DNA of 64,000 nucleotides from Kofleriaceae bacterium (lineage in GTDB: Bacteria; Myxococcota_A; Polyangia; Haliangiales; Haliangiaceae): the NCBI GenBank assembly GCA_965215005.1, contig CBDCCZ010000003.1, forward strand, positions 32,001 through 96,000. Reading direction: 5' to 3'. The notes under the pieces were generated by a model. The model was not told the origin of the DNA and did not search any database. It worked only from the letters and a program-made list of their open reading frames with translations. Shown piece after piece: positions 7,941-61,121 of the stretch; positions within the stretch are counted from its first letter, which is position 1, and each line of letters opens with the position of its first letter. The translations under genes were made by a program, and so were the position numbers.

Positions 7941-8300
7941 GGGGGCGAGCTGGTTTCGACGAGGATGTCGAGGCTCGAGCTGCGTGTCGTGGCGCCCGAG
8001 GCCACGTAAAAACGGGCAACCATGCAACTGCGAACGATAACGCTGTTGCTCTCGCTGCCTAACTAAAACGGGTAGTGACGGCGCTGCGGAGCCACCGCCT
8101 GAGGCCCCGTAGCGCTGCCAAACAACCAGGCTGGCCTGCCGGGAACGATCGTCGCCCGGCAGGCGAGATTCAGGACGAACTAGTCGTTGCGGAAGGTTGT
8201 CGATGGCCGTCCGCAACAACGAAAATCAACACACCGACTACACACGTAGACGCCCGTTCGGAAGCATCTTCGGACCCGGGTTCGACTCCCGGCGCCTCCA
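7941..8300 (+). ncRNA. ssrA: tmRNA; tag peptide ANDNAVALAA* (8030-8062)
   Basis: 5' GGGGGCG...GGTTTCGAC; 3' T-arm CCGGGTTCGACTCCCGG and acceptor CGCCTCC-A; tag reading frame ends in LAA-stop. The genome has CTA where CCA would be. Confidence 0.97.
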
Positions 8301-8303
8301 CTA

Positions 8304-26032: not shown

Positions 26033-26156
26033 GGAGCGCGTTTCCTTCATTGAGGAGCTGGCCGTCGGTGGGCGGCAGCAAGCACGTGATTCGTTTCGTA
26101 TGGCAGCGGCACGACGGAGCTCGAGCAAGGGCATCTACCCATCGTTTCGCAATCGG

Positions 26157-37295: not shown

Positions 37296-39089
37296 TTACA
37301 ACGTCTTCATGTACTCGATGACTGCCATGCGCTCGGCGTCGGAAAAGTCGGTACCCCAATAGTGGCCACCGTTGCCGTTGCCGACTTGGGTTGTATCGAA
37401 GAGCGCCGCGTTCTTCTTGTCTCTGGTGTCGAGACCGACGCGGACCGGGTCGAACTTCTTGCTACCAACGTAGAACTGCGCAGACCGCTGCTCGGGCGGC
37501 AGTAGCAGCTCGTACAGCGAGGGCACCGAGCCGTTGTGCAGGTAGGGAGCCGTGAAGACGGCGCCGTTCAGCGGTCGGGCCCTATAGGTGGTCAGCTGCA
37601 CCTGCGTCGGACGGAGCGGCTCGCGGAATCCGAGATACGCGATCTTCTCAGCGTCGGTGAGACCGTTCTCAGCAAAGAAGCGCTTGATGAGAAGCTGACC
37701 TGAGATGTTGATGAGCGCCGCTGCAGACGCCTTGCCATCCCCGCCGACGAGGCCCTGCGCTTGAGCAATGGCGGTAAACGGGCCTGGGAAGGCCTTGCGA
37801 GTCGCGAAGGAGACCGCGGCGGTCGGATCCGTGCCGAGGAGTCCCTGCGGAGAAACTTCGCCGTTCGGCCCCGGAAACAGCGGCGTGCTGAAGTTGGTCT
37901 TGGCGAAGGTCTTGCCGTACGCGTTGGGATCCGTGCGCGGCTGCGGGTCGAGCGTGTGGCAGCTGGCGCAGTTCTCCGCATACAGCGCCGCGCCCTGCGA
38001 GGCAAGCTGCTGATCGATGGCACCGAACAGCTCCTCGGGCCATGCCGGCGACTGAAGCGACTGCACCCAACCCTCGAGGGCGTCGAGGTTCTCGACGTTC
38101 GCGCTCGACTCGACGATCAAGCCGTAGGGATTGCTGAGGTCGAGCGTGTTCTGGGTGAACGTTCCGGTGGCCTGCCCCACGTTGCGGCCAATCGGGCTGT
38201 GCACCGAAGAATTGTACTGTACCCACTCGAAGTCGGACGTGTTCCAAAGGTAGGGGAACTGCGTCGGCGCAATGGCTGCTTGGCAGTTGCGCGGATCCTC
38301 GAAGAGAGCGCAAACGACTTCGTTGCCGATGATCGTGAACGCATCCGTACGACCGGGGCCATGAGGGCTCTGGCCGCGGCTGCGCTCTAGACGCGCCACC
38401 CACCAATCGCGCGCCTCATTAATCTCGACGAGAAGCTGGCTGCGCTCAGCGTTGCCGGCATTGCCCCCGAGGACGTTGTTTGCGAAGCGCTCGAACTTGC
38501 GACTGTCGTCCAACGTAGCCTGAAGAGACGCAAGAATGGCCTCTTGCAGTTGCTCGAGATCGGCAAGGCTCTGACCACCGTCAATGCGGACGGCGCGGCC
38601 CTTATACTCGAGCTCTCCGGTGTGGCAGCCCGCGCAGGTGAGGCCGATGTAATCGCCTCCGGCGAGATCGACGTCGCGCGCGAAGCCAACCGGTAAGCGG
38701 TCAGGGTTAGCCTCCGTGGCCTCGTCCTCGACTAGATAGCCCATCGCGCGGATGTTCTTTGGATCGCGCAATAGCTTTTTCTTATCGGCTTGCTCCAAGT
38801 GAAGAAACCACTTATAGGGGAGCATGCGCGAACCCTCAGACGTCTGATAGAACGCTGCTCGCGTTGCTGCGTCCCAGCCTTGCTCCAAATACACGACTTG
38901 CTTGCCGCCACGATCCCCTTTGGCAGCCGCGTTCTCCGTTAGAAAGCCGTCGTCCGAGGTGGACTCGGCCGCACAGCCCGTGAATGCGATGGCGGCCGCG
39001 GCCAGCCCAGAAACTGCGGCATGGCGCTTGAGACCACCCGCAAGGCCACCGACCGTGCGGGAGCCTACCACTCGACGCTCTTTGAACAT
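37296..39089 (-). CDS. Di-heme cytochrome c lipoprotein, RoxA-like / cytochrome c peroxidase-like (paralog 2)
   Basis: CAGCH, CASCH, PYLHNGSVP; lipobox FTGC; AAGGAGG RBS before ATG 39089; colinear with paralog 1. Confidence 0.88.
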   Translation of the reverse strand: MFKERRVVGSRTVGGLAGGLKRHAAVSGLAAAAIAFTGCAAESTSDDGFLTENAAAKGDRGGKQVVYLEQGWDAATRAAFYQTSEGSRMLPYKWFLHLEQADKKKLLRDPKNIRAMGYLVEDEATEANPDRLPVGFARDVDLAGGDYIGLTCAGCHTGELEYKGRAVRIDGGQSLADLEQLQEAILASLQATLDDSRKFERFANNVLGGNAGNAERSQLLVEINEARDWWVARLERSRGQSPHGPGRTDAFTIIGNEVVCALFEDPRNCQAAIAPTQFPYLWNTSDFEWVQYNSSVHSPIGRNVGQATGTFTQNTLDLSNPYGLIVESSANVENLDALEGWVQSLQSPAWPEELFGAIDQQLASQGAALYAENCASCHTLDPQPRTDPNAYGKTFAKTNFSTPLFPGPNGEVSPQGLLGTDPTAAVSFATRKAFPGPFTAIAQAQGLVGGDGKASAAALINISGQLLIKRFFAENGLTDAEKIAYLGFREPLRPTQVQLTTYRARPLNGAVFTAPYLHNGSVPSLYELLLPPEQRSAQFYVGSKKFDPVRVGLDTRDKKNAALFDTTQVGNGNGGHYWGTDFSDAERMAVIEYMKTL

Positions 39090-39156
39090 CCGAATCGCCT
39101 CCTTAGACAACAGCATCTCGTCGCCAATGGTTGTGCAACGTGCCGTCGCGAGGAGC

Positions 39157-39186
39157 ACAATGAGGGGTTCGGTCTAGTTTCGTCAA
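39157..39186 (-). promoter_or_regulatory. Putative sigma70 promoter of cytochrome paralog 2
   Basis: TTGACG-N18-CATTGT on the minus strand. Confidence 0.55.
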
Positions 39187-39383: not shown

Positions 39384-39526
39384 CGCCGCGGGATTCATGA
39401 CGCAGAAATCCGCCGCCCCGATGCGGGCAAGGGCGGCAGATTTCTGCTGCTCAGGCGCCCCCTTTGGCGTCTCCCCAAGAGATCGTTGTTTTTCTAGTGG
39501 TTCACGACTTCGCCGTGAACCACTAG
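39384..39526 (+). repeat. Structured dispersed repeat, copy 2
   Basis: Near-identical to 28311-28455; its terminal CTAG contains the TAG stop of the 39523..42912 gene. Confidence 0.85.
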
Positions 39527-42500
39527 CTCATCCGAAGGCGCGCTCGATCGGTGTCTGTAAACGCCGCCACCGCTGCTGCAGCGCCGAGCTCACGCGCCCA
39601 GGACAGGAACCGAGCCAACGTGTTCTCGGTTTCCTCACCGCAGTTGCCCTCGTGGCGATCGATCAGCACCCGGGCCCGCATGCCGTAGAAGGATGCCCAC
39701 GTGGCGCGAACATCGTCAGAGTAATCCTCGAGCTGCTGCAGATAACGGCGCGCCCGCGGCACGTCGTCGAGAGCAAGTGCTATGTCGATTCCTTCAGTGT
39801 AGACCGGTAGCACGTTGAACGCCGCCGGCAGGCGCAGTGCGTATGCCTCGCTGCGATCCAGCGCCCGTTGCCGCTCCGCGGGCTCCTCGCTCGTCCGGGC
39901 CAGCAGTAAATACGCGTCGGCGCCGCCGAGGAGGCCATGACCATCTTCGGCCATTCCGCATGCCTCAGTGATGACCTCGATAGCTTCGCCGAAGCGACCG
40001 GCGGCAACCAGCGCACGCGCCTTGGTCGCCAATGAGATACAGATCAACCGCGGCAAGCGCACCCGCCGGCTGGCCTCTAGCATGTTCAGCGTCACGGCCA
40101 GTGCCTCTTCATGAGCTCGAGGCTCACGAAGGTAGAGACTATAGATGTGGCCTGTGATCGCAATTTCCCGCGCCAAATCTTCGGCCTGCGCAAGCTCATA
40201 TGCAGTCCGAGCAACCTGCTCGCCACGCTGCCAATCGAGTAGAAAATAGCCGAGACCGGCGTCGACGGAGCTATTGATCACGAAAGCCGCGGCGTCGCCG
40301 AGCTGCTCCGCAAGCGTCTCGGCCGCCGAAAACTGCTCACGTGCAGCGGACAGCTCGCGAATCATCATTAGCGCGTCGCCAATGCCGCTCGTCGCCCGCA
40401 GCTCAGCCTGGCGGTCTCCCACGGCGATGGCCCACTGGCGCGCTCGCTCGTGGTGCGATCGACATCCCGCAGCATCTCCTCTGGCGAAAGCGGCGTTGCC
40501 TCGCAGATTGGCAACTCTTGCCAGCTCGCTCATGAGCTCCCAGCGCTCTGCGATCTGCTCCGCGGCATCTAAATGCGCGGCGATAAGCTGTGCATCTCCG
40601 CCGAACGCGCGGGCCATCGCGGCCAAACCGACGTAAATCTTCGCCCGCAGCTCATCGGAGGCTCGGTCGTCCCGATCCTGCAAAACCGCCAGCGCATCCT
40701 CGTAAATGGCTCTGGCGCGCTCGAACGCGAGCTGCCGCTCGGCCTCCGCGGCAAACTGCAGTGCATACTGCGCGGCGCGAAGAGAGTCGCCACCGGCGGT
40801 GAAATGATGCACCAGCGCCGCTGTCGGCGTATCCGGGTGCCCTTCCAACGCCAAGGCCAAGCGCAGGTGATGATCCTTGCGGCCCATGGGCTCGATTGCC
40901 TCGAGCAATGCGGCACGAATCGCAGCGTGCGCAGATTCGATGCTCATGCTGCTCGTGAGCGAGGAGGTAGCAACGACACCGGCAGCGCGGAGCTCGAGCG
41001 CCGCCCGTTCGCGATCTTCTGGCTCGAGCACCAGCGCAGCGCCCAGCACGACCACGGGCACCGGCTCACCGGCAACCACGACCATCTCCGCCATCCGCTG
41101 AGCGACACCGCCGAGGGCGCGCACGCGCTCGCGAACGGCTTCGTGAAGGTTCCAATCCGCGGCTCCGCCCGCCGCAGCCACATGAGCCGCAAGCTCGATC
41201 AGAAATAGCGGCGATCCCGCGGCAGAGGCCCAGGCACTATCATCCTGACGCGCGACCCCAAACTGCTCGACTAGACGCCGCTGCGACGCTACATCGAGCG
41301 GCCCAAGCTCCAGATGGACAGCGGAGCTCATCCGCGCATCCGTGGGCAGGGTGCGACTGAGCACCATGAGCAGAACCGGCGCGTCCATCGCCGAGAGCGC
41401 ATCGAGCAGCTGTGAGCTCGCCTCGTCTGACCATTGCCAATCATCGATGCACATCAGCAGTGGTCGCTTGCGCGCACACGCGGCGATGACTGCGATCAAG
41501 CGCTCTACCGCCACCGCCCGCGTATGCTCGGGCGACGCTGCCTCTATCAACTTGCGGGCTGGATCCAGTCGTCGAAACACCGGGAACAAATGGCCTACCC
41601 ACGCCGCAGCGTCGCCAATCAGCTCATCGCGGCTGTCGCCATGATGCGAGGCGATGTACAGCGTGAGCTCGTCCATCAGCCCATCAAAGCCATTGTAAGC
41701 CAGACTCTCCCGCTCGTGGCAACGGCCCATGAAGACGACTGGTGAGTTATCGACCCGCGAGAGTTTGTCTATTAGCTCGTGTAGAAAACGTGTCTTACCG
41801 ATACCAGCCTCGCCGCTCACGCGCACGAGAGTGGCTTGAGCCGACGCAGCGACGCTGCGATAACACTCCACGAGTTGCGCAAGCTCGCGCTCGCGACCGA
41901 CGAACTGCCGAGCTCGCCAGTTTTGTCGCGGTGGCGGCAGGTCGAAGGCCGTGAGGAGCTCACTGGCCTGCGGCCTGGCCGCAGGAGACGGGGCGAGCAA
42001 GCGATTGCACAACTCGACGAGGTCGGTCGGCAAGTTGGCCGTGAGCAGGTTTGGATCGATGGGCGTCAAGCCGCCGCACTTGGCCGATAGAATGCTCATC
42101 GTCGGCCCAACGTACGGAGCGGTGCCAGTGAGCGCAGCGTAAAGCAGCACACCTACCGCGTACCAATCGCTTGCCGGCTCGGGCGTGCCGCCCGCGGCTT
42201 GCTCCGGCGCCATATATGCGACCGTGCCGGCAGTGCGATCGTGCAGCCCGACTCGTCGCGCGCGGGGAAGCTCTGCGACCACGCCGAAATCCGTGATCAC
42301 AACGCGACCATCCCGCCGCACGAGAACATTCGACGACTTGATATCGCGATGGACGATATCGGCCTCGTGAAGTGCAGCGAGGCCACTGACGAGCTGGCGC
42401 ATGGCTTCGCGCAGCCGCTCGACGTCCACGACCTCATCGACCGTGGGACGCGTATCGGGAACCGCTGGCAGCGCGATTCGCGAAAGTAGCGTCACGGGAT

Positions 42501-42912
42501 CGCCGAGGATGACACTCGTTCCATCGCCGCCAACATCCCGGGCGGTGGTTCTGGTGGCGGTCTGCATCGCGACCATGCTCGCGACATCGGTGACCGACGC
42601 CGCGGGCGGATTGCGCCCCGCGCGCACATACGAAAGGAAGTCGCCAGCGTCGGCAACCTCCATGGCCAGATACCAGTTGCCGTCCTCGCAGGCGAGGTCG
42701 TAGAGGGCCACGACGTTGGGGTGCGCGAGATCCCCCACCGCCCGATACTCGCGCTTGAAGCGATACAGGTTGACCGGATCGAAGGTTCGCAGGGTCTTGA
42801 GCGCTACAGGAACCCGTCGCTGCTCATCGAACGCTTCGAATACCACGCCCATCCCGCCAGCACCGAGACGGCCACGAATGGTGAAGCGAGAGTTCTGGGG
42901 CAAGGGTTTCAT
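39523..42912 (-). CDS. Ser/Thr protein kinase - AAA ATPase - helical repeat (STAND-like) signalling protein
   Basis: [25 protein letters not shown], Walker A GEAGIGKT, IDDWQWSD. Confidence 0.92.
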   Translation of the reverse strand: MKPLPQNSRFTIRGRLGAGGMGVVFEAFDEQRRVPVALKTLRTFDPVNLYRFKREYRAVGDLAHPNVVALYDLACEDGNWYLAMEVADAGDFLSYVRAGRNPPAASVTDVASMVAMQTATRTTARDVGGDGTSVILGDPVTLLSRIALPAVPDTRPTVDEVVDVERLREAMRQLVSGLAALHEADIVHRDIKSSNVLVRRDGRVVITDFGVVAELPRARRVGLHDRTAGTVAYMAPEQAAGGTPEPASDWYAVGVLLYAALTGTAPYVGPTMSILSAKCGGLTPIDPNLLTANLPTDLVELCNRLLAPSPAARPQASELLTAFDLPPPRQNWRARQFVGRERELAQLVECYRSVAASAQATLVRVSGEAGIGKTRFLHELIDKLSRVDNSPVVFMGRCHERESLAYNGFDGLMDELTLYIASHHGDSRDELIGDAAAWVGHLFPVFRRLDPARKLIEAASPEHTRAVAVERLIAVIAACARKRPLLMCIDDWQWSDEASSQLLDALSAMDAPVLLMVLSRTLPTDARMSSAVHLELGPLDVASQRRLVEQFGVARQDDSAWASAAGSPLFLIELAAHVAAAGGAADWNLHEAVRERVRALGGVAQRMAEMVVVAGEPVPVVVLGAALVLEPEDRERAALELRAAGVVATSSLTSSMSIESAHAAIRAALLEAIEPMGRKDHHLRLALALEGHPDTPTAALVHHFTAGGDSLRAAQYALQFAAEAERQLAFERARAIYEDALAVLQDRDDRASDELRAKIYVGLAAMARAFGGDAQLIAAHLDAAEQIAERWELMSELARVANLRGNAAFARGDAAGCRSHHERARQWAIAVGDRQAELRATSGIGDALMMIRELSAAREQFSAAETLAEQLGDAAAFVINSSVDAGLGYFLLDWQRGEQVARTAYELAQAEDLAREIAITGHIYSLYLREPRAHEEALAVTLNMLEASRRVRLPRLICISLATKARALVAAGRFGEAIEVITEACGMAEDGHGLLGGADAYLLLARTSEEPAERQRALDRSEAYALRLPAAFNVLPVYTEGIDIALALDDVPRARRYLQQLEDYSDDVRATWASFYGMRARVLIDRHEGNCGEETENTLARFLSWARELGAAAAVAAFTDTDRARLRMS

Positions 42913-43195
42913 CTTAACGCAAGCGGCGCCGTTGCACGCAGTCAGCTCGTGCTGCTGCTAAATCAGAAGACCTCGCAGCAGCAGCGAGAGCAGCGCTAGC
43001 GACACCTCTGGCGAGCAGCAAAAGTCGGCCGGTCAGCGGCTGGGAGAAGGTGGCAAAACAATCGTCGTTGCATTTTACTCGTTCAGCCATCACAGTAACT
43101 TCCGATACCTAAAAATACACGAGAGAATTCACCGCGAGTGCTGAATTGCTGAGGCCACGCTGCACAGCCGCCTGATGCGGCCATCGAGGAAGTAC

Positions 43196-44917
43196 ATGTC
43201 ACCGTTGCAACGACCCATCACCGATCTTGGCACTGCGGCCACACACGCCCCTCTCAGTCATCACCTCACGAGCCTGCTAGAAGCACTGGGCATTCGCCAC
43301 GCATTTGGCGTCTCTGGCGGCGCCATCGGCGCGCTTTGGCACTCTCTTCACCAAAGTGACATCGAGGTCATGCACTTCCGTCATGAAGCGGGCGCCGCGT
43401 TCGCGGCAATCGAGAGTTACTTCGTTACCGGTGTTCCGGCGGCGGTCTTCGTGACCAGCGGCCCGGGACTCACCAACGCACTCACAGGCGCCTACGCCGC
43501 TCGTTACGACGGCGCCAAGCTACTACTCTTGTCACCAGCAACGGCAGCGAGCGGTCGCGGGCGGCGCGCATTTCAGGAAACCAGCTCTGCAACGCTACCC
43601 TCGGGGCTGTTCGAAGATGGACCGCTCTTCGACTATGCGACGACGATCAGCTCAGGCGACGAGCTCGGACAGGTTGCCCGGCGGCTAGCGATGGGGTTCT
43701 CGCGGCCAGGAACCTTCGTGGCGCATGTGAGTGTACCTACGTCGCTGCAAACCGCACTCACGGAAGCACGGGCTTGGCCATCCGTCCGCGTGGCGCCGGC
43801 CGCACCATCGGAAGAGTCAGTAAAGGAGTGCGCCTCTCTCCTCAACGAGGCTCCTTTTGTCATTTGGGTGGGGCATGGTGCGCGTGATGATGCTCCATTG
43901 GTTCGCGAGCTCGCCCAACAAAGCGGCGCGGCGGTTATGTGCTCACCCCGCGCGAAAGGGATTGTATCGGAGCGGGATCCGCAGTACTTGGGAGTAACCG
44001 GCTTTGCGGGTCATGAGCAGGTTCTCCACTACATGAGAGAGTCGCGACCGGCTCGGGTGTTGGTACTCGGAAGTCGCCTCGGAGAGCTCACGTCGTTCTT
44101 CGATCAAGAGCTCACTCCAGCCGAGGGCTTCATTCACGTCGACGTCGACGCATCGGTCTTCGGCGCCGCCTATCCCGATAGCGAGACACTCGGCGTCCAA
44201 GCTGACATCGGTGCGTTCCTCCGCGCGCTCCTGCCACATATCGAGAAGCGAGTACCATCCGGCTTACCTCGCCCACAGCCCGAGCCGATGCGTCTCATGG
44301 CAGAAGGACGCGGCGTCGACCCGCGAGCGGTCATGCGTGCCATCCAAGACGTGGTCGTCGACGAGAGCGAGGGAATGGTGATTACCGAGGCCGGGAACTC
44401 GTTTGCGTGGGGCACGCACTGTCTCCGCTTCGAAGACGCCAAGCGCTACCGAGTCAGCACCGGATGCGCCGCCATGGGCCACGCCGCCACGGGTGTACTG
44501 GGTTCGGCGTTGGTCGCCGACCGCCCCTCCGTAGCCGTGGTAGGCGATGGTGCCATGTTGATGAACAGCGAGGTCAGCACAGCCGTTCACTACGGGATTC
44601 CAGCAATCTGGGTAGTGCTTAACGACGCAAGGTACAACATGGTTTGCCAGGGCGCAGCGCAGCTCGGCCTGCGCGGCCTCGACGCAGAGATACCCGCGTG
44701 CGATTTTGTGCAAATCGCCCGTGGGATGGGAGCCAGCGGCATTCGTGTGGAGCGCGAAGATGAGCTCGAAGCGGCCCTACGAGCAGCGCTTGCCGCCAAC
44801 GCGCCTTACGTCATCGACGTGCAGATCGATCATCAGGTTGCGGCACCCACCGGCAACCGCAATGCTCACTTGGCCAGCCAAGGCATCAATCGAAACTTAC
44901 AGGATGGAGCGCTGTGA
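43196..44917 (+). CDS. scyA: ScyA-like thiamine-diphosphate-dependent acyloin synthase (acetolactate synthase family)
   Basis: FGVSGG, HFRHEAGAAFAAIESYF, TSGPGLTN, ThDP motif GDGAMLMN...VLND; GAGGA RBS before ATG 43196; translationally coupled to scyC. Confidence 0.8.
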   Translation: MSPLQRPITDLGTAATHAPLSHHLTSLLEALGIRHAFGVSGGAIGALWHSLHQSDIEVMHFRHEAGAAFAAIESYFVTGVPAAVFVTSGPGLTNALTGAYAARYDGAKLLLLSPATAASGRGRRAFQETSSATLPSGLFEDGPLFDYATTISSGDELGQVARRLAMGFSRPGTFVAHVSVPTSLQTALTEARAWPSVRVAPAAPSEESVKECASLLNEAPFVIWVGHGARDDAPLVRELAQQSGAAVMCSPRAKGIVSERDPQYLGVTGFAGHEQVLHYMRESRPARVLVLGSRLGELTSFFDQELTPAEGFIHVDVDASVFGAAYPDSETLGVQADIGAFLRALLPHIEKRVPSGLPRPQPEPMRLMAEGRGVDPRAVMRAIQDVVVDESEGMVITEAGNSFAWGTHCLRFEDAKRYRVSTGCAAMGHAATGVLGSALVADRPSVAVVGDGAMLMNSEVSTAVHYGIPAIWVVLNDARYNMVCQGAAQLGLRGLDAEIPACDFVQIARGMGASGIRVEREDELEAALRAALAANAPYVIDVQIDHQVAAPTGNRNAHLASQGINRNLQDGAL

Positions 44918-45867
44918 ACAACGAACGCAACACGGTAGCCGTTTCCGCGTACATCGATACCAGCCTAGATGCATCGCTGGCGTACATGCAGAGGCTAGAG
45001 CACCTCAACGATTGGACGCTGTTTAGTCGCATGGTCGAAAAGGTTGACGACTACACCTGGCTAGGCACCGCGTCCTGCTATCAAAGCCAGCTCTACTATC
45101 ATTTGCGCACCATCGATACGCCTCGCTTCACCGGTATCGAGTGGCACTGCGGGCTCGAGTATCAGAACTACTTTCAGGTCTACCCCGCGCTCCTGTTTCC
45201 GCCGAGCTACGTTCGTCCCGGCTCGCAAGAAACGGGCAGCTACCTGCACTGGGTGAGCTTTGTAGATCCCCGGCGCCGCACAGGAATGATGGAGCAGGCA
45301 GTAGAGCTCGTTCACCGTTCCGAGGTCCGGTCGCTCAAGGCGATTCTCGAGCGCAAGGCAGGCCTCTCGCGAGCCGCCGTTGGCGAGTGGGACATTCGCA
45401 GCCAGACGATCTACATAGACGCGCCACTTGCCGACGGCGTGGCCTACCTCGCCGACGTTCGCAACGTTGCCGAGTGGGCCCACCTGCTCCGCGCCGACGG
45501 CCAGCTAGGCAGCGATCGCGGCGTCTTCCGCGACGAATACGATCAAGTCGTAGAGGTCTCGACCAGCGTGCAGGAGCTAGGCAAGTACTTCATCGTCGAG
45601 GAAGATCGGCATTTCCCCCAGCATGAGAAGTGGGAGCGTTGCCCAACTCTACTCATTCCCTGCTCCTACGCATTTGGTGACCCCGAAGCCACTGGCTACC
45701 TGCAGCACCGCATCACCTTCTGGCCACGAACGGAGACGCCGACGCGGGGCCGGCTCCTGCTCGAGGACTACGCTGCAGAAAGCGTCAATATCAAGCGATT
45801 GATCGAAGCTCGCGCCGGGAACCTCGAGACCTTTGCCCGCGGCCTGAGCTACCTGCCCCGCACCTAG
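44914..45867 (+). CDS. scyC: Scytonemin biosynthesis cyclase/decarboxylase ScyC homolog
   Basis: Motifs recalled from cyanobacterial ScyC along the whole length: SAYI, WTLFSRM, TWLGTAS, LYYH, GIEWHCGLEY, YFQVYP, SFVDP, LERKAGL, EWAHLLR, DEYDQ, HRITFW, NIKRLIEARAGNL; GTGA overlap with scyA. Confidence 0.88.
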   Translation: MNNERNTVAVSAYIDTSLDASLAYMQRLEHLNDWTLFSRMVEKVDDYTWLGTASCYQSQLYYHLRTIDTPRFTGIEWHCGLEYQNYFQVYPALLFPPSYVRPGSQETGSYLHWVSFVDPRRRTGMMEQAVELVHRSEVRSLKAILERKAGLSRAAVGEWDIRSQTIYIDAPLADGVAYLADVRNVAEWAHLLRADGQLGSDRGVFRDEYDQVVEVSTSVQELGKYFIVEEDRHFPQHEKWERCPTLLIPCSYAFGDPEATGYLQHRITFWPRTETPTRGRLLLEDYAAESVNIKRLIEARAGNLETFARGLSYLPRT

Positions 45868-46069
45868 GTCGGCGCTCCGAAATAGATGGTCCGTTCTAGG
45901 CGACTGTGCATCCGTGCTGGCGGCGTTGCCTTGCCAGCCCGGCGCACAGACGCCGATCTTCTGACCATTTATTCCTGCGCGCCTCCTAATCTCATTAGAG
46001 TCATTTCGCAAGTCCCCTGCGACGGGCCGGTGTCGACGTCGTCGCCAACCTACTGCCAGGAGCCAAGAC

Positions 46070-46699
46070 ATGAGCATTCGAGTATTTGGAGTCGCCGAGA
46101 GCGCGTGTACCCAGAAGGTTCTACTCACACTTGCCGAGAAAGATGTCAGCTACGAGCTCTGCCGCGTCGACCTTCTCACCGGAGAGCATAAGCAGCCGAG
46201 CCATCTAGCGCGCCATCCCTTTGGGGTAGTGCCAGCCATCGACCACGACGGCTTCGAGCTCTACGAGTCGACTGCCATCATGCGATATCTCGACGCTCGC
46301 TTCCCCGACCCGCCGCTCACCCCATCGTCACTCCAGCAGCGAGCGCGGATGGATCAGATGATCAGCGTCGAGCAATCTTACCTGTCGCGCCACACCAACA
46401 CGCTCATCGTGCAGCTCCTGCTAGCCCCTACCCGGGGCGCCACGCCCGACGCAACCGCCGTGGGTCAAGCCCGCGAAGGCCTTGCGACGTGCGCGACGGT
46501 TCTAAATGACGTCCTCGCGCAGACCCGCTTCCTGGCTGCCGACGAGCGCTCTCTGGCCGATCTGGCCTGTCTGCCGTATGTGGCTGCGGCAATGCGCCTA
46601 GAGGCTCTCCCACCCATAGAACGATCCCCGCACCTGGCCCGCTGGCTGGGCGAGCTCACGGAATCGAAGAGCTGGCGCGCCCTAACGCCCCGCGGCTAG
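46070..46699 (+). CDS. Glutathione S-transferase family protein
   Basis: GEHKQPSHLARHPFGVVP, LYESTAIMRYL, SLADL; AGGAG RBS. Confidence 0.92.
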   Translation: MSIRVFGVAESACTQKVLLTLAEKDVSYELCRVDLLTGEHKQPSHLARHPFGVVPAIDHDGFELYESTAIMRYLDARFPDPPLTPSSLQQRARMDQMISVEQSYLSRHTNTLIVQLLLAPTRGATPDATAVGQAREGLATCATVLNDVLAQTRFLAADERSLADLACLPYVAAAMRLEALPPIERSPHLARWLGELTESKSWRALTPRG

Positions 46700-47379
46700 C
46701 TCTTGCCCGTGCGCTTCTCGGCCACGCCCACGTAGATGGCGTGGCTTCGACCGCCCTTGCCAGCGTGATGCACCGAGGTCGTGAATCCAGCGTTGGCAAA
46801 GCGACGGGCGAAGGCGGCGTCAGGCTCTTCGGACCACACCGCGAGCACGCCGCCCGGGCACAGAGCCCGGCGGGCCCGCGCCAGCGCTTCACGACTATAG
46901 AAAGGATCATCGCGCTGCTGCGTGACCTCGTGAGGTCCTTCATAGAGGTCGAGGATGATCGCGTGGAGCTGCCCGGGCTCAGCGCGGGCGATGACGGCGG
47001 CTACATCGTCTAGCTCGACCCGCACCCGCGAATCGCCCACAGCGTCGTCGGTGAGTGTCGCCCAATGCGTGCGACACCACTGCAGCACCTCCGGCTGCAG
47101 CTCGGCCACGGTAACGCGCGCAGCGGCGGGCAACGCATCGAGCGCTGCACGGAGCGTGTATCCCATGCCAAGACCGCCGATGAGGATGCTTGGAGCCGCC
47201 ACGGCCGGCGTCGCCGCGCACGCGATCGTCGCCAGCGCCTCTTCGGAGCGACGCGCGGTGGAGGTCATGAGCACGCGTCCATCGATGACGAGCAGAAAAT
47301 CGCCGTCCCCGCGCTGCCGCAGCTCGAGCATTCCCTCGCGGGTCATCACTGTCTCGAGGGTCTTCCATGGACGCGCCAT
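46696..47379 (-). CDS. Spermidine synthase-like SAM-dependent methyltransferase-fold protein
   Basis: LIGGLGMGYT, VAELQPEV, IILDLYEGP, LCPGGVLAVWS. Confidence 0.85.
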   Translation of the reverse strand: MARPWKTLETVMTREGMLELRQRGDGDFLLVIDGRVLMTSTARRSEEALATIACAATPAVAAPSILIGGLGMGYTLRAALDALPAAARVTVAELQPEVLQWCRTHWATLTDDAVGDSRVRVELDDVAAVIARAEPGQLHAIILDLYEGPHEVTQQRDDPFYSREALARARRALCPGGVLAVWSEEPDAAFARRFANAGFTTSVHHAGKGGRSHAIYVGVAEKRTGKS

Positions 47380-47508
47380 TGGCGCACCATAACGCAGCCG
47401 ACCCGCTCCTCGGCAGCGCTCGTGGCTCAGCGAAGTCGCGCGAGAGACGCGCCGTCCCAGCGGCGCGAGCTCGTCGCCGACCGGCCACTCTTGTTACCAT
47501 CGCGATTC

Positions 47509-48363
47509 ATGCTCACCGGACCCGAAGCGGCACTGTTGGCGGTCATGTTGCTCGGTTTGATGCTGGGCGTCGGCTGCACCTTATCGCTTCGCGACTTCCG
47601 CCAGGTGGCGGCAGCCCCGTTGCCAATCGCGATCGGCCTGGTGTCGCAGTTGGTCGGTATGCCGCTCCTCGCTCTGGGCCTCGCGGCTGTCTTCGAGCTG
47701 CCCGCCCCGCTCGCGCTCGGGTTGGTGTTCGTCGCCTGCACCCCAGGCGGCACGTTGAGCAATGTCTTTGCCTACCTCGCCCGCGGCAACGTCGCCCTCA
47801 GTGTGAGCATGACCGCGGCTTCTTCGCTGATTTCGGTGGTCGCCATGCCAGTGAGCCTGTGGTTCTACGCCGGCAGCCTCACCACCACCCAAATGCGGAT
47901 CCCATACGGTGGCGTGGCTGCATCGCTTGGATCGGTGCTGTTGCCGGTGGTCGCGGGTATGGCGATCCGCGCGCGCAACGCAGCGCTGGCGGCTCGCATC
48001 GAGCGCCTCGCCAGTCGCATTGCCTTCGTTGCGCTCGCTCTCATGGCGGCGCTGTGGGCACCGAAGTTCTGGACCTATGTCGGCGACACGAACGCTGCAG
48101 GGTTTTGCGCGATCAGCGCACTGGCGCTCGCTGGATTTGCGCTCGGCTTCGGCGCCGCATCCATCGCGCGACTGCCGCTTGCGGACCGCAAGGTAATCGC
48201 GCTCGAGACCGGCATCCAAAACACGACGCTCACGTTTGGCATCATCACGTTGAGCTTTCCGCCCGCGCAGGCTGCAGCGTTTGGATGGGTTCCGCTGGTG
48301 TACGGCGCGCTCACGCTGATCTGGGCAGCCTGCCTCACCGTGCTGCTTCGTCGCGCGACGTGA
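47509..48363 (+). CDS. Bile acid:sodium symporter (BASS) family transporter
   Basis: MLGVGCTL, CTPGGTLSNVFAYLARGNVALSVSMT, LETGIQN; ATG 47509 (the longer ORF overlaps the divergent gene). Confidence 0.9.
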   Translation: MLTGPEAALLAVMLLGLMLGVGCTLSLRDFRQVAAAPLPIAIGLVSQLVGMPLLALGLAAVFELPAPLALGLVFVACTPGGTLSNVFAYLARGNVALSVSMTAASSLISVVAMPVSLWFYAGSLTTTQMRIPYGGVAASLGSVLLPVVAGMAIRARNAALAARIERLASRIAFVALALMAALWAPKFWTYVGDTNAAGFCAISALALAGFALGFGAASIARLPLADRKVIALETGIQNTTLTFGIITLSFPPAQAAAFGWVPLVYGALTLIWAACLTVLLRRAT

Positions 48364-49475: not shown

Positions 49476-50519
49476 ATGCACCCTACTCAATCGCTTCGCT
49501 TTTTAGCGCTGGCCTTGGCCGGCGTAGGCAGCTCCGTCGGCTGTGCCGAACCGCTCTCGAACGACGCCACTGCTCTGGCGGCAACCGCCGATAGCGAGTC
49601 CGGCGCCGGCTCGATCACGTTCGCGGTACCGCGCCGCACCCGCGTCCAATTCGCAACGCTTCCGGCCGGACCGATCAACATCGAGCTCGAGCTCCGGTCC
49701 AGCACCGATCTCGATCTGCAAGTATTCGACGGCCAAACCCCCGTGGTCCAGTGGCCTGCCGGTGTGCTTGCCGGCGAGACCGGCGCCGCGGTGGAATACG
49801 ACGGCGCACTCATCACCTATAGCGGGTACGGCGGCGACGGCAGCGGCACCGGCAACGAACGGCTCCACATCGGCGGCAACCTCGCCAGTCCCCTCACCGT
49901 CCACGTATTCGGCTATTCCGCCGGCGTTGCGACCGTGAATTACGAGTTTGGCCAGAGCGGCGTTGGCGCCAGCTGTGGCAGCCGCGGCCTGCCGCCGTGC
50001 GCGCCCAACCTGGTGTGCAAGAACGGCGACGACGGAGCCATCGAGCGCGACGTGCCCGGCACCTGCCAAACCGAGACCTGGTGCGAGAGCGAAGCGAGCG
50101 CCGCCAGCGACTGTGAAGGCCTCGTCCATGTCGCCGTGCCGGGCCGCTGGGGCTGCGAATCCTTCGAGTGCGTATGGCGCACCGATGAGGACGCCGCCCC
50201 GCCGCAGGCGTGCTCGCTCTATGGCGATGCATGCGCCGCCGGAAGCGTTTGCGACTACGAATGCCCCACCGCCACCAACTGCGGCATCAATCCGCAGGGC
50301 ACCTGCCGCCTCGAGTGCACCTCGGCCGTCGACTGTGACGCCGGCCAATACTGCACCACCACCGGCGTGTGCCGCGCCGATAGCACCTGCGGAACGCCAG
50401 CCGACTGCACCCAGCCCGACAACGACTGGGACTCTGGCGCCTGCATCGCCACCCGCCGTTGGGTGCCGACCTGCGAAGCCCAGAGCTGCGGCTTCGGCTG
50501 CGCTCCGCTCGAGCCGTAA
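49476..50519 (+). CDS. Lipoprotein with a PPC-like beta-sandwich and Cys-rich C-terminal repeats
   Basis: Lipobox SVGC; DLDLQV...GNERL; >20 Cys in the C-terminal half. Confidence 0.78.
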   Translation: MHPTQSLRFLALALAGVGSSVGCAEPLSNDATALAATADSESGAGSITFAVPRRTRVQFATLPAGPINIELELRSSTDLDLQVFDGQTPVVQWPAGVLAGETGAAVEYDGALITYSGYGGDGSGTGNERLHIGGNLASPLTVHVFGYSAGVATVNYEFGQSGVGASCGSRGLPPCAPNLVCKNGDDGAIERDVPGTCQTETWCESEASAASDCEGLVHVAVPGRWGCESFECVWRTDEDAAPPQACSLYGDACAAGSVCDYECPTATNCGINPQGTCRLECTSAVDCDAGQYCTTTGVCRADSTCGTPADCTQPDNDWDSGACIATRRWVPTCEAQSCGFGCAPLEP

Positions 50520-50647
50520 GCGCGATCGAACCAGACGGCGGTGACCTCGGCATCGCCGCGCCGCGCTCCCGATCAGCCGCGGACCGCGATTCGGGAGCGC
50601 GCTCGCTTCCACTCGAATTTGGTGGGTGTTACAGTGAGTTAGCGCTC

Positions 50648-53600
50648 ATGTCGATGCGCGATACCCTCACGCCGAGCAACCCCCGAACAACCGACGTGCT
50701 GAGCGCGCAACTGGAAGCGTTTCGCAGGAACCCGACCGACGGAGCGCTGTTTCACGAGCTTCGGGCGGAGCTGCGCAAGAGCGGCCAAGCAGAACCGCTT
50801 GCCGATATCGGCGAGCTTCACGCGCCGCACGAGCGCGATCGGCTGCGCGCCGCCGAAATCTGGAGCGAGGCCGGCGAAGCGCGGCTGGTGCTCGGTCACG
50901 AGCAACAGGGCGAAGCGGATTTGCGCCGGGCTCTCGAGCTCGACCCGGCGAACGAACGCGCGGCGGCACGCCTCACCGAGCTGCTACTGACCGCGGAGCG
51001 ATTCGCAGAGGCTGCCGAGGTTCTCGAGGTCGAAATCGAGGAGCTCGAGCGCCGCGCTGGCGCCTCAAGCGACAGCGCCTCACTCAACGCTCGACGCGGC
51101 CAGCGCCATCGCACGCTGGCGCAGCTTTGGGACGAACGACTTGGCCGCGTTGACTTGGCCCTGCAACACTGGCAGTGCGCCTGGCAGCTCGACCCCGAAT
51201 GCGGCGACGCACTCGAAGCCGCGCGCAACATTTATACGTCGCTGGGCGACGACGCCATGGTGGCCCGGCTTTACGAAGCCGAAATTGCCGCCTTGGCAGC
51301 CGATGCGCCGGCCGAGCGCCGGGCCCGCCTCGAGCACCAGCTCGGGCGAATCTTGCACCGCCAAGGACGAGCAGCGGACGCCGCTGAGCGCCTCGAGCGC
51401 GCGCTCGAGCTCGCGCCGCGCTCCCCACAAATTCGCGAGGCCCTCGCCGAGGTCTATGCCTCCAATGAGCTCGTTGGCGACGAGCAGCATCAGCACCGCG
51501 CTAGCGAGCTGTTCGTCGAGCTCGGCCGGCATCGCCTCAGCACCCAACAAGGCGAGGCCGCGATCGTCTATCTGCGGCGCGCGCTGGGCGTCGATCCATA
51601 TTCGCAAGAAGGCAGCGCCGCGCTCGAAGGAGCGCTTGCCGCCGAAGAGCGCTGGGACGAGCTCGAGCGGCTGTATCGCCACCGCTCGAGTCTCGCCGCG
51701 GATCCTGGTGAGCGGCGCGCCATCACCCACAAGCGCGCCGAGCTCTATGAACGCCAGCTCGGCGATCGCGATGCTCTCAAGACGGCGCTTGCTGAGCTCG
51801 TCGCCGAAGAGGCGCCCGGCGGCGACAGCGCGGCGCGGCTGCGCGATTTGTACCGGCAGGACCAGGACTGGGCGCTGCTCGCCGGCCTCATCGAGCGCGA
51901 GCTGCCGGCCGTCGAGCACGATCGCGCGCGGTTGTGCGCCGAGCTTTTAGAGCTCGCGACCATCGCACGCGAGCATTTGAGCGATCGCGATCGCGCCGCT
52001 GAGCTCTTGCACCGCGTGCTCACCATCGATTCACGCAACGCCGAGGCGCTGGCTCGCTACGGCGAGCACTTCCGCGAGCGCCGCGATTGGCGCGGTTTGG
52101 CCGACTTGCTCGAGTTCGCCCTCGACAATGCCCGCGAAGATGGCGCCACCGCGGAAGAGCTGGTGCGCCAGCTCGAAGACCTCGCCAAGCTCGCTGAGCT
52201 GCGGCTCGGCGACGTCGAGCGAGCCATCAACGCCTGGCGTCGCATTCAGGAACTCGAGCCCGACAACCGTAAAGCGGGCGAAGCGCTGCGGCGGCTGATG
52301 TCGCAGGCAAAGATGTACGAGTCGCTCGTGGGAATGCTCGAGGGCGAAGCAGAGCGCGCGCAGAGTCCCGTCGAGCGCGCCGAAGCGCTGCGCCGCATCG
52401 CTCAGGTGTATCGCGAGCGGCAGGTCAATCCGCGCCGCGCCATCGCGCTGTATGAAGAGGTTCTAGGGCTGTTTCCCCGCGATGAGGCGGTGCTCAAAGC
52501 GCTTTCTGAGCTCTATGAGCGCGAAGGCGATGACGCGGGTCTGGCGCACACGCTGCGCCGGCAGCTCGATCTCGACCTCGAGAAGATGCAAGCCGAGGTC
52601 GACGGCACGCGCGCGATGACGGCTCGCGATTGGCCGGTTGCCAAGCGTTCCCAGCGGCTCACCGCGCTGCGCCGGCTGGCTTCGATGTACGAAGATCGCC
52701 TCGATGACCCCGAAGGCGTGGTGTATGCGTGCACCGGCATCCTCGAGCTCATGCCCGGCGATCGCGATGCGCTCGATCGCATGGAGCGCGTTCTCGACAA
52801 AGCCGGCGATGCCGAGCGTCTCGAGCAGACGCTGGAATATCACGCCTCGTCGGCAACCGGTCCCGCTGAACGCGCCAAAGTCCTTCGCCGCCTAGCGCGG
52901 CTCGCTGCCGATCAGGGCGATGAGGTCAAGGCGATGGAGCGCTGGGAAACCACGCTCAAGGCGGCACCGAGTGATGCGGAGGCGCTGGAAGCGCTGGGCG
53001 CACTTTACGAAGCCCATCAGCGGTGGGGGGAGCTGGCAACCGTGCTCGAGCGCCAGCACGCTTCGCAGAAGCTGCCCACCCCCGGCTCGGCCGCTGCGGC
53101 GCTCGCCGCGGTCGAGCTCAAGCGTTACGCCCACGTGGTGGATGCCGAGCTCGGTGATACCCCGCGGGCGCTGCGCGCGTGGCAGCGAGTGCTCGAGGTT
53201 CAGCCGCGAGACCGGCAAGCACTCGATGCCCTCACGCGGCTCTACGAAACCGCCGGTCGGTGGCGCGACTTAGCCGAAATTCTGGCCACGCAAGCGCCGC
53301 TCTATGTCGACGATGAGCCGCAAAAGGCAGCGGCGGTGGGCCTGCGGCGAGCACGCCTTCTCGAGGAGCGCCTGGGCGCCCCCGCCGAAGCCGCCAAGGC
53401 GCTCGAAGCACTGCTCAGCGACCTCGACCCGGCGAACCTCGATGCTCACAAGGCGCTGCGCCGCCTCTATGAAGCACGCGGCGACTTCGACGCGGCGGTG
53501 CGGATCGCCGAGCGCGAGATGTATCTTGCGACCGAGCCCAGCGAGAAGATCGCTCGTGGGCTGGAAATCGGGCTTCTGTGCCGCGATCGCCTCAGCGACC

Positions 53601-59565: not shown

Positions 59566-59762
59566 AACGCGGGCCCTAGGAAAGGCCCACCGAAGCGCCG
59601 CGCGCCGCTCCTTACCCGGGGCCGTGCGCCCCAGTTGTCGGCGTTGCTAAACATGTAGGTGACAGGCCCAGAGTTGCCCGCAAGGCGGCAAAGATTGGCG
59701 TTGTGCCGGCGGCCGCGGGTCAACATCGAGGCACCCGGCTTCCGCGCTGCTATGGTCGCGCC

Positions 59763-61121
59763 GTGCCACGCGCGCTTCGGTTACCTCCGGGACCTCCTGC
59801 CCGCCGCGGCGGCGTGCTTGGCAACGCGGCTTACTACCTGCGCTTCGTCGCCGACCCGCTCGCCTTCGTCGGCGCGCGCTTCGACCGTTACGGCGACCTC
59901 TACTGCGCGCCCAACCCCGATGGGCTGTTGTTCGTGTTGCGCCACCCCGATCACTTGCGCGAGGTGCTGGCGCAGAAGAGCGGCGTCTATCGCAAGACGC
60001 ATAGTCTGTTCGATCGGCTCGCGCGCGTGCTCGGTAACGGATTGGTAACGACTGACGGCGACGTATGGCGACGCCATCGGCGGATGATTCAGCCAGCGTT
60101 TCACCGCGACCGTCTCGAGGATTACGCCGAGCCCATCGTCGAGGAAGCCGAGCGGGCTACCGAGCAGTGGCAGAGCGGCACCATCCGCGATGTCGGCGCC
60201 GATCTGATGGCGCTCACGCTGCGCATCGTGAGCCGGCTGCTGTTCTCCCACGATGCCTCTTCCGACATCGCCACCGTCGCCGCGGTCATGGCGGAGTTCC
60301 AACGAGCCATCGCGCGTCCCGAATTGGCGCCGCCGTGGCTGCCGAGCCCGCAACGTCGGCGGATTCAGCGCGCCACCACCGCGCTGGATACGATGCTCTT
60401 CGGCATGGTCGATGCCCGTCGGCGCGCTTTGGCCGCAGGCGGTGAGCGGCCCCGCGATCTCTTACAGCGCCTCATCGATGCGGTCGATGAGCAAGATGGC
60501 GCGGGCCTCAGCCGCCAAGAGCTCCGCGATGAGCTGGTCACGCTGCTGCTCGCCGGCCACGAGACCACCTCGCACGCGCTGTCTTGGACTCTCTATTTAT
60601 TGGCCGAGCATCCCGCGGAAACCGCCTTGCTGACCGCAGAGCTCGATTCTCGGTTGCATGACAGAGTGCCGAAGCTCGCCGATCTCGCAACGCTGCCGCG
60701 TACCGGATGGGCCGTGGAAGAAGCGATGCGGCTGTATCCGCCGGCTTACATGCTCGCGCGTCGCGCGGCGGCCGATACCACCATCGGCGGCTATGAGGTC
60801 CCCTGCGGCAGCGAGATCACCATGTGGACCTATTTCACCCATCGCGATGCGCGGTGGTTTCCCGAGCCCACCGCCTTCCGCCCCACGCGGTTCGAGAGCG
60901 CGGCTCGGCAAGCGCTTCCCAAGCTCGCGTATCTGCCGTTTGGCGGCGGCCCACGCGCGTGCATCGGCGCGCAGCTCGCGCTACTAGAAGCTCGTCTGAT
61001 CCTCGCTTCGTGGCTGCGGCGGTGGCGTTTTGAGCGGCTACCTGAGCAGCAAGTGCAGCCGCAGCCGCGCATTACGCTGCGGCCCAAGCACGGCTTGCGG
61101 ATGCGCGTTACTCGCCGCTGA
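59763..61121 (+). CDS. Cytochrome P450
   Basis: PPGP, AGHETT, EAMRLYPP (ExxR), FGGGPRACIG heme ligand; GTG 59763 likely start. Confidence 0.93.
   Translation: MPRALRLPPGPPARRGGVLGNAAYYLRFVADPLAFVGARFDRYGDLYCAPNPDGLLFVLRHPDHLREVLAQKSGVYRKTHSLFDRLARVLGNGLVTTDGDVWRRHRRMIQPAFHRDRLEDYAEPIVEEAERATEQWQSGTIRDVGADLMALTLRIVSRLLFSHDASSDIATVAAVMAEFQRAIARPELAPPWLPSPQRRRIQRATTALDTMLFGMVDARRRALAAGGERPRDLLQRLIDAVDEQDGAGLSRQELRDELVTLLLAGHETTSHALSWTLYLLAEHPAETALLTAELDSRLHDRVPKLADLATLPRTGWAVEEAMRLYPPAYMLARRAAADTTIGGYEVPCGSEITMWTYFTHRDARWFPEPTAFRPTRFESAARQALPKLAYLPFGGGPRACIGAQLALLEARLILASWLRRWRFERLPEQQVQPQPRITLRPKHGLRMRVTRR

Follow-up and report, generated by a model that had tools for sequence, protein, structure and literature searches.

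What does a pair of genes resembling scyA and scyC, the carbon-skeleton-forming core by which cyanobacteria begin to make their sunscreen scytonemin, make in the genome of a myxobacterium, and where did it come from? The pair lies in a window of 64,000 nucleotides (the whole stretch of DNA that was analysed; G000:C3:32001-96000) from a Kofleriaceae bacterium, within a 388.6-kb contig of a 6.2-Mb assembly of 62 contigs that is 92.8% complete and 2.2% contaminated. We propose, at a probability of roughly 60%, that the two overlapping genes constitute a self-contained two-enzyme pathway to a monomeric cyclised ketone, and that its scyC is of cyanobacterial derivation. A preliminary description of the window had put forward a minimal scyA-scyC unit lacking scyB, with possible glutathione conjugation of the product. 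Our analysis partly supports that description: a known pair of enzymes turns up here in a host where it was not expected, the core of the description (a minimal scyA-like/scyC unit without scyB) was right, and its glutathione S-transferase (GST) part is unsupported. Comparisons were made against a survey of 93 other ScyC loci, of which 13 derive from named genomes and 80 are metagenomic (the best 80 of 122 relatives); we refer to these as low-GC loci (GC content below 0.55, n = 61) and high-GC metagenomic loci (GC of 0.55 or more, n = 32).

The second gene of the pair encodes a protein that exceeds the cutoff of the curated ScyC equivalog model (NCBIfam NF035924; 480.7 bits against a cutoff of 400), with residues 4-315 aligned over model positions 1-312 of 312, which bears out its earlier designation as a ScyC homolog; Pfam returned only a weak SRPBCC match (Polyketide_cyc2) under its cutoff. 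Of the 104 alignment columns with at least 97% conservation among 59 low-GC ScyC sequences, 94 are kept, and the 10 changes are mostly conservative (F8V, T10V, N30H, V92A, L227I, Y234F, Q241E, I263L, K280R and Q282L). An AlphaFold2 model of the protein (predicted local distance difference test, pLDDT, 94.8; predicted template modelling score, pTM, 0.92) comprises two SRPBCC domains in tandem. A sequence search of the PDB gave no match at E up to 1; the best solved structures retrieved with the model by Foldseek were DynU16, the carbazole synthase CqsB2 (template modelling score 0.57 on the target, root-mean-square deviation 2.9 over 168 columns, 17% identity), and two di-domain aromatase/cyclases, BexL and StfQ. 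As modelled, this tandem, cyclase-resembling fold is consistent with cyclisation and decarboxylation of the beta-keto acid product of ScyA.

The first gene encodes a thiamine diphosphate (ThDP)-dependent enzyme with the Pfam TPP_enzyme N, M and C domains. Its best-fitting architecture is the ScyA-related subfamily (NF035927; 761 bits, cutoff 1000, model positions 3-550 of 551), closely followed by the ScyA equivalog (NF035923; 758.7 bits, cutoff 1020), and the two lead the next family (197 bits) by about 560 bits; as a control, Capilliphycus ScyA scored 1055 bits on the ScyA model. Since neither cutoff is reached, and since alignment to the ScyA model begins at position 58 of 623 with the N-terminal part absent, we name the gene ScyA-like, and the name ScyA used in the preliminary description is not supported. 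At 52-59% identity the enzyme is equidistant from ScyA, ScyA-related and high-GC relatives. It possesses GDG-X25-ND (residue 450) together with a glutamate motif, RHE, which we take to mark ThDP binding and the catalytic glutamate, respectively, and it keeps 157 of 177 columns whose conservation across 48 low-GC ScyA sequences is at least 97%. The two reading frames are joined by a GTGA overlap (with GGATGGAG upstream of it), in which the GTG start of scyC extends over the TGA stop of the ThDP gene, and which from its arrangement would translationally couple the pair, as had been described for this enzyme and a full-length ScyC.

Further components of scytonemin biosynthesis were sought across the whole assembly. 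The best match to the ScyB model (NF035922, cutoff 600 bits) scored 79 bits, and a tblastn search with ScyB returned only three generic Glu/Leu dehydrogenase-family genes at 25-28% identity. The model of the ScyD/ScyE family, which serves the late steps in the periplasm (NF033206, cutoff 80 bits), reached 30.5 bits at best, tblastn of the host genome with the ScyE-family protein of locus L060 found no match, and EboE (NF035939) had no match across the assembly. None of the ScyB, ScyD/E-family or EboE genes was present among the window open reading frames (ORFs) scanned. The reported lack of scyB, scyDEF and ebo genes in the window was thereby confirmed for ScyB, the ScyD/E family and EboE, and for all three it extends to the rest of the assembly. 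No trp/aro supply genes accompany the pair, unlike in the cyanobacterial scytonemin cluster, and the host genome holds no homolog of the accessory genes of other scy cluster types. A tyrosinase search (PF00264) gave no match in the window or the assembly, nor in the control genomes, and thus had no positive control. A cytochrome P450 gene in the window (59703..61121) was considered as a partner and rejected, being 25-26% identical to the P450s of clusters L029 and L051 and located 14 kb away.

From these components we propose a two-step route. The ScyA-like enzyme would decarboxylate one arylpyruvate and join it to a second, yielding a beta-keto acid; for the cyanobacterial enzyme, which serves as the paradigm, the two are p-hydroxyphenylpyruvate and indole-3-pyruvate. 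The ScyC-family tandem-SRPBCC protein would then cyclise and decarboxylate this intermediate to a tricyclic cyclopent[b]indol-2-one-type ketone. Because ScyB is lacking, the keto acids would be drawn from general metabolism, through general aminotransferases or prephenate metabolism. Feeding by aminotransferases had been suggested beforehand and is plausible: the host genome gave 15 matches to class I/II aminotransferases (PF00155), of which 10 score at least 114 bits. Since it lacks partners of the ScyD/E-family, ebo and P450 kinds, the pathway would end at the monomer, or a spontaneously oxidised derivative of it, and not at scytonemin; from the missing late genes, dimeric scytonemin production by the host is predicted to be absent. 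The substrates, the product and expression of the pair are what we infer for this route.

ScyC belongs to a small family, with 81 cluster representatives (at 50% identity) among 1.84 billion at E ≤0.001, within which the window protein is a singleton, with its best relative at 62% identity. Its named relatives among the top 120 matches are all cyanobacterial, as are the nearest ESM Atlas clusters. Within the window's phylum, ScyC over the cutoff was found in two of 401 sampled genomes, namely the host and G051, a member of another class, where a ScyA-like gene (747 bits) is immediately followed by ScyC (495 bits). No ScyB (best match 217 bits), GST or STAND kinase was found in G051, and the neighbours of its pair (a histidine kinase gene upstream; 3-hydroxy-3-methylglutaryl-CoA-synthase-like, thiolase and acyl-CoA dehydrogenase genes downstream) are unrelated to those of the window. 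Since the same bare pair recurs here without shared neighbours, the conserved unit is the two genes alone.

Across the survey, ScyB was detected in 59 of the 61 low-GC loci, usually in the order scyA-scyB-scyC, the exceptions being a 1.7-kb fragment (L073) and L107, and in none of the 32 high-GC metagenomic loci. A ScyA-like gene was found in 19 of these 32: it abuts ScyC in 14, has a DUF4386 gene between itself and ScyC in two, and lies about 4.2 kb downstream in three; among the 13 where none was detected, 12 have at most 1,364 nt upstream, and L105 has 6 kb with none. In 20 of the 32 a P450 gene directly follows ScyC, with resemblance to the cyclodipeptide-synthase-associated (CDPS) type under the cutoff for that type, and commonly precedes genes for an SRPBCC protein, a 219-aa protein of unknown kind and a di-haem cytochrome c; recurrent members of this operon include L046, L051, L052, L054, L056, L058 and L091. 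Fusions of the P450 to ScyC occur at L098:147-2321 and L107:6082-8259. The P450 of the high-GC cassettes might replace the ScyE-type oxidative step. A further group of loci (L101, L102, L103 and L106; GC 0.69-0.71) combines ScyC with two other genes, one isopropylmalate/homocitrate-synthase-like and one a LeuD/LeuC-like fusion of the aconitase family. L101, L102 and L106 also have a ScyA-like gene some 4.2 kb downstream (e.g. L101:2435-9178), and none was seen in L103; these partners suggest that the substrate is a 2-oxo acid lengthened by chain elongation. Only one surveyed metagenomic locus, L092, holds a bare pair amid ample flanking sequence. ScyA-like/ScyC cassettes without scyB are common in high-GC uncultured bacteria, accounting for 32 of the 80 metagenomic loci retrieved, in at least three architectures, and the minimal unit first described in the window recurs without scyB in G051, L092 and many of these loci.

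Two side observations concern individual survey loci. L008, annotated as a Candidatus Gracilibacteria metagenome-assembled genome (MAG), holds a canonical scyA-scyB-scyC cluster with a GC of 0.43; its ScyC and the Hydrococcus one are sisters (100% support), and this contig is probably cyanobacterial and misbinned. In L029, a gene for a TnpB-family RNA-guided endonuclease (L029:11515-12912) is located about 4.6 kb downstream of scyC.

Phylogenetic reconstruction (trees of 66 and 61 ScyC rows; IQ-TREE, short search, LG+C20 with posterior mean site frequencies) placed the window ScyC in a five-row clade with P0083, P0084, L060 and L029, supported at 99% by the Shimodaira-Hasegawa approximate likelihood ratio test (SH-aLRT). 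This clade falls inside the low-GC group, and the main high-GC clade (23 rows, 99%) stands apart from it. P0083 carries the annotation of a Moorea MAG, and the four relatives have either a low-GC-type amino-acid composition or low-GC DNA. Forcing 23 low-GC rows together without the window and L092 worsened the log-likelihood (lnL) by 29.4 (approximately unbiased test, p-AU 0.0023), for a group that was partly defined after viewing a tree and in a test that also excludes L092, and forcing the two myxobacterial ScyCs of the window and G051 together worsened it by 22.5 (p-AU 0.011). The comparison of ScyC with its cyanobacterial homologs that the preliminary description had proposed therefore finds it nested among low-GC cyanobacterial-type sequences, with the alternatives rejected. 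Together, these results suggest that the window scyC descends from a low-GC, cyanobacterial-type variant scy cluster, independently of the gene in G051.

Cyanobacterial-type nearest relatives, and a local GC (0.61-0.63) slightly under the genome mean (0.656), could also have been produced by an assembly or binning artefact that joined a cyanobacterial fragment to a myxobacterial contig. We regard this as extremely improbable, given that the pair itself has 60-63% GC against 40-45% in its nearest relatives (and a genome mean of 65.6%), is at most 62% identical to any known sequence, and sits midway in a 388.6-kb contig without N (none in the window) among genes of myxobacterial type (STAND/tetratricopeptide repeat (TPR) kinases, an MtsC-like protein, FG-GAP/ASPIC proteins and ricin lectins), with no abrupt break in the composition profile of the window. 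By GC content at third codon positions, the ThDP gene ranks in the 5th and scyC in the 43rd percentile among long ORFs; judged by this, scyC has since adapted to host codon usage and is well integrated in its host. The nearest named relatives of the host RpoB are Haliangium sp. (88%) and many entries of Kofleriaceae bacterium MAGs (82-85%), alongside proteins annotated Myxococcales, which supports a Haliangium/Kofleriaceae-like myxobacterium as host and agrees with the "myxobacterium-like" label given earlier. A chimeric contig, raised beforehand as a possible flaw, is hence unlikely. As to traces of mobility, no transfer RNA gene was found near the pair, the sole match in the window being a transfer-messenger RNA (tmRNA), and the repeats near the pair are short, imperfect and look like chance.

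For the ThDP gene, a wider set of relatives is available within the phylum: ScyA-like genes (E ≤1e-120) occur in 15 of the 401 genomes, 13 of them without ScyC, and two in the window's own family. In a tree rooted on the host's own acetolactate synthases, eight myxobacterial ScyA-like genes form a separate clade (97%). A basal position of the window enzyme with L029, P0323 and L060 in this rooted tree (98%) was discarded, with outgroup branches of about 9.5 and the placement lost once the outgroup was removed. In the outgroup-free data, a constraint uniting the enzyme with L029, L060 and P0323 lay 14.5 lnL above the free quick tree (p-AU 0.76). Co-inheritance of the ThDP gene with scyC is, on these trees, compatible with the data, and the horizontal sharing of the pathway proposed earlier is supported for ScyC, through its 99% clade with cyanobacterial-type sequences. 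Among the loci without ScyC are L110, L111 and L113-L118 (genomes G045, G360, G383, G140, G258, G250, G230 and G150); the ScyA-like ORF of G250 has 906 aa and an N-terminal extension. Myxobacterial ScyA-like genes of this kind adjoin luciferase-like monooxygenase genes, or an alpha/beta hydrolase gene with one for a beta-ketoacyl-ACP synthase III (KAS III), or a ketosynthase gene. With partners differing in this way, they belong to other pathways, which may be acyloin-type pathways of myxobacteria.

A number of observations weigh against the two-enzyme pathway with a cyanobacterial scyC as we propose it. That indole-3-pyruvate reaches the pair in the absence of ScyB is an assumption, the gene absences rest on an assembly that is 92.8% complete and could be searched save for 8 kb of contig C12, and we know of no residue-level mechanism for ScyC. 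The branches of both window proteins are long (0.7 to 1.0; ScyC 0.7 to 0.95), and all trees were obtained with a short "quick" search, which in the case of ScyA missed better trees. The outgroup-free tree gives the ThDP enzyme no supported place. Forcing it into the myxobacterial clade was not rejected in the rooted data (p-AU 0.54, the constrained tree being 2.7 lnL better), and the same constraint lay 9.7 lnL above the free quick tree in the outgroup-free data (p-AU 0.70), so that the two placements are only about 4.8 lnL apart, with the L029/L060 joining the better. Further, the ThDP enzyme scores under both curated cutoffs, and 20 of its 177 conserved ScyA columns are altered, some non-conservatively (W124R, H261D, R375D and E377R).

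These missed cutoffs and altered columns mean that the substrate pair of the ThDP enzyme may differ from that of ScyA, and the same enzyme logic could act on other 2-oxo acids, such as two phenyl-type pyruvates or indole-pyruvate with an aliphatic acceptor, to give a different ring rather than a scytonemin-type monomer. The even distance of the enzyme from ScyA, ScyA-related and high-GC relatives would fit such a shift, as would the KAS III ketosynthase, hydrolase or luciferase-like monooxygenase genes beside other myxobacterial ScyA-like genes, the chain-elongation enzymes for 2-oxo acids that accompany ScyC in the L101-type (type II) metagenomic loci, and the use of other acceptors by related ThDP enzymes such as NzsH, as given in PMC9822442. 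Set against this, ScyC lies well within its curated family with 94 of 104 conserved columns kept, which argues for a substrate of similar shape, and its nearest relatives sit in clusters with ScyB, the Trp dehydrogenase. We consider a change of substrates unlikely on balance, while giving it more weight than any other competing explanation.

The two-enzyme pathway also presupposes that the pair still functions. It could instead be a silent or decaying remnant of a horizontal transfer with no current role, as its rarity in the phylum (two of 401 genomes), its singleton status without close relatives, the long terminal branches of both proteins and the absence of scyB and the downstream genes might be read. 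Both frames, however, are intact, of full length and translationally coupled; 89-90% of conserved columns are kept, the ThDP motif is intact and the codon composition is host-like. Preservation of all these features points to long residence under purifying selection, and we judge the loss of function improbable.

The GST gene that follows the pair had been suggested to belong to the pathway and to conjugate glutathione to its product. It is on the same strand, 202 nt downstream of scyC, and is not translationally coupled; its best NCBIfam match, maleylacetoacetate isomerase, scored 81.7 bits against a cutoff of 171, and it remains under the cutoff of every GST equivalog. No homolog was found in any of the 94 other ScyC loci (G051 and the 93 surveyed), and those in related genomes reach only about 40% identity. 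A role of this GST in the pathway is thus very unlikely. The GST protein was also used to look for an insertion by synteny in 30 relatives, which include no second genome of the host's genus; this approach was abandoned, as the best matches were paralogs about 40% identical and no orthologous flank was recovered.

The gene layout is given in Table 1, with the GST and the divergent kinase-ATPase gene both located as first described. An upstream in-frame ATG at 43175 would yield a ThDP protein of 580 aa (ORF 43175..44917), and the GAGGAAG sequence probably acts as ribosome-binding site of the shorter form. The divergent intergenic region is, from its position, presumed to be the promoter region of the pair. 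A scan of 42800-46900 for the sigma-70 consensus, which says little for a myxobacterium, revealed no promoter-like site, and a terminator consensus scan of the same interval, likewise uninformative for a myxobacterium, returned a single site (minus strand, 42989-42971), fewer than in shuffled sequences.

Table 1. Positions of the scyA-like/scyC pair, its flanking elements and other genes recorded in the window.
Feature	Position in window	Strand	Description
ScyA-like ThDP-dependent carboligase	43196..44917	+	573 aa from ATG 43196; TGA at 44915-44917
Shine-Dalgarno-like GAGGAAG	43183..43189	+	read from sequence, before ATG 43196
ScyC-family cyclase/decarboxylase	44914..45867	+	tandem SRPBCC di-domain, 317 aa; GTG start
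GTGA overlap	44914..44917	+	scyC GTG start over TGA stop of ThDP gene; read from sequence
Divergent intergenic region	42913..43195		283 nt, between kinase gene and ThDP gene
GST	46070..46699	+	202-nt gap after scyC
Ser/Thr kinase fused to AAA_16 ATPase	39523..42912	-	divergent from ThDP gene
tmRNA gene	7941-8301	+	tag peptide ANDNAVALAA
Clostripain-family peptidase	20063-26134	-	2023 aa; thrombospondin type 3 and FG-GAP repeats
Di-haem cytochrome c peroxidase	35043-36824	-	RoxA-like domains; tandem paralog of the next gene
Di-haem cytochrome c peroxidase	37296-39158	-	RoxA-like domains; tandem paralog of the preceding gene
Spermidine-synthase-like methyltransferase	46696-47379	-	longest ORF overlaps the next on the opposite strand
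SBF-family transporter	47065-48363	+	longest ORF overlaps the preceding
TPR-repeat protein	50459-59029	+	2856 aa

Among the other window genes, the two peroxidase genes lie beyond the kinase gene and away from the pair, in the same stretch of lower GC (0.61-0.63), and the 2023-aa peptidase resembles the MYXO-CTERM cohesion protein MtsC (306 bits, under a cutoff of 350). The domain matches of the overlapping methyltransferase and transporter ORFs do not themselves overlap, and the start of the transporter is therefore probably downstream of the listed ATG.

In the literature that we searched, a set outside which most subscription journals lie, there was no description of ScyC or of a ScyA-ScyC pair in myxobacteria. 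Scytonemin is presented as exclusive to cyanobacteria, with scyB always adjoining scyA, in PMC6939163, and ScyC as restricted to cyanobacteria plus Methylocaldum marinum in PMC9796282. Against the latter view of ScyC as essentially cyanobacterial, the window shows a myxobacterium bearing it in a unit pared down to two genes. The part of the pathway that builds the carbon skeleton can evidently exist without a dedicated tryptophan dehydrogenase and the dimerisation machinery, which offers a concrete two-gene candidate route to a cyclopent[b]indole-type scaffold, and a likely case of gene flow from cyanobacteria to a predatory bacterium. A more far-reaching and tentative scenario, which we think possible but would not bet on, is that a predatory soil myxobacterium captured the cyclase of a cyanobacterial scytonemin-variant cluster, and perhaps the whole two-gene core, and makes from it a monomeric cyclopent[b]indolone-type alkaloid new for myxobacteria, fed only by housekeeping transaminases. 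The pair might then be the tip of a large non-cyanobacterial ScyA-ScyC family (bare, P450-coupled and chain-elongation-coupled) with products unrelated to scytonemin.

Among known systems, the cyanobacterial scytonemin cluster (Nostoc punctiforme type, scyABCDEF) shares with the window a ThDP carboligase and a ScyC in one operon, the window ScyC being 53-62% identical to its counterparts and over the curated cutoff. The window differs in that scyB, which 59 of the 61 low-GC loci possess, is missing between and near the two genes, that ScyD/E-family, ebo and trp/aro supply genes are absent, that the ThDP enzyme scores under the ScyA cutoff without the first ~57 positions of that model, and that the host is a myxobacterium. 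The variant clusters L029 and L060 come nearest, holding the closest relatives of the window ScyC (62% identity; the 99% SH-aLRT clade) and ThDP enzymes that, like the window's, score higher as ScyA-related than as ScyA, and that the tree assigns to the ScyA-related group; L060 further shares with the window a scyA-like gene that abuts scyC. Unlike the window, both have a GC of 0.41-0.46 and retain scyB (scoring 655 bits for L029 and 490 bits for L060), L029 comprising scyA, scyB, P450, methyltransferase and scyC genes, and L060 a ScyD/E-family gene followed by scyB-like, scyA-like and scyC genes. The high-GC P450 cassettes (type I, including the ScyC-P450 fusions) resemble the window in being non-cyanobacterial, in lacking scyB (0 of 32) and in a ScyA-like gene abutting ScyC, whereas their ScyCs form the separate 23-row clade (99%) that excludes the window, and their accessory genes are absent from the host genome. 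Methylocaldum marinum, as described in PMC9796282, is likewise a non-cyanobacterial bearer of ScyC, with homologs of ScyA, ScyB and ScyC, in contrast to our host without ScyB. Beyond scytonemin, the carbazole pathway (NzsH/CqsB3 and CqsB2) follows the same logic, in that a ThDP enzyme acting on indole-3-pyruvate precedes an SRPBCC-fold cyclase; PMC9822442 describes CqsB2 downstream of such an enzyme in carbazole chemistry, and coupling of p-hydroxyphenylpyruvate with indole-3-pyruvate by ScyA. CqsB2 ranks with the best structural matches for one of the ScyC domains, although it is single-domain and only 17% identical, and the carbazole pathway differs further in also needing a KAS III enzyme and in using pyruvate as acceptor.

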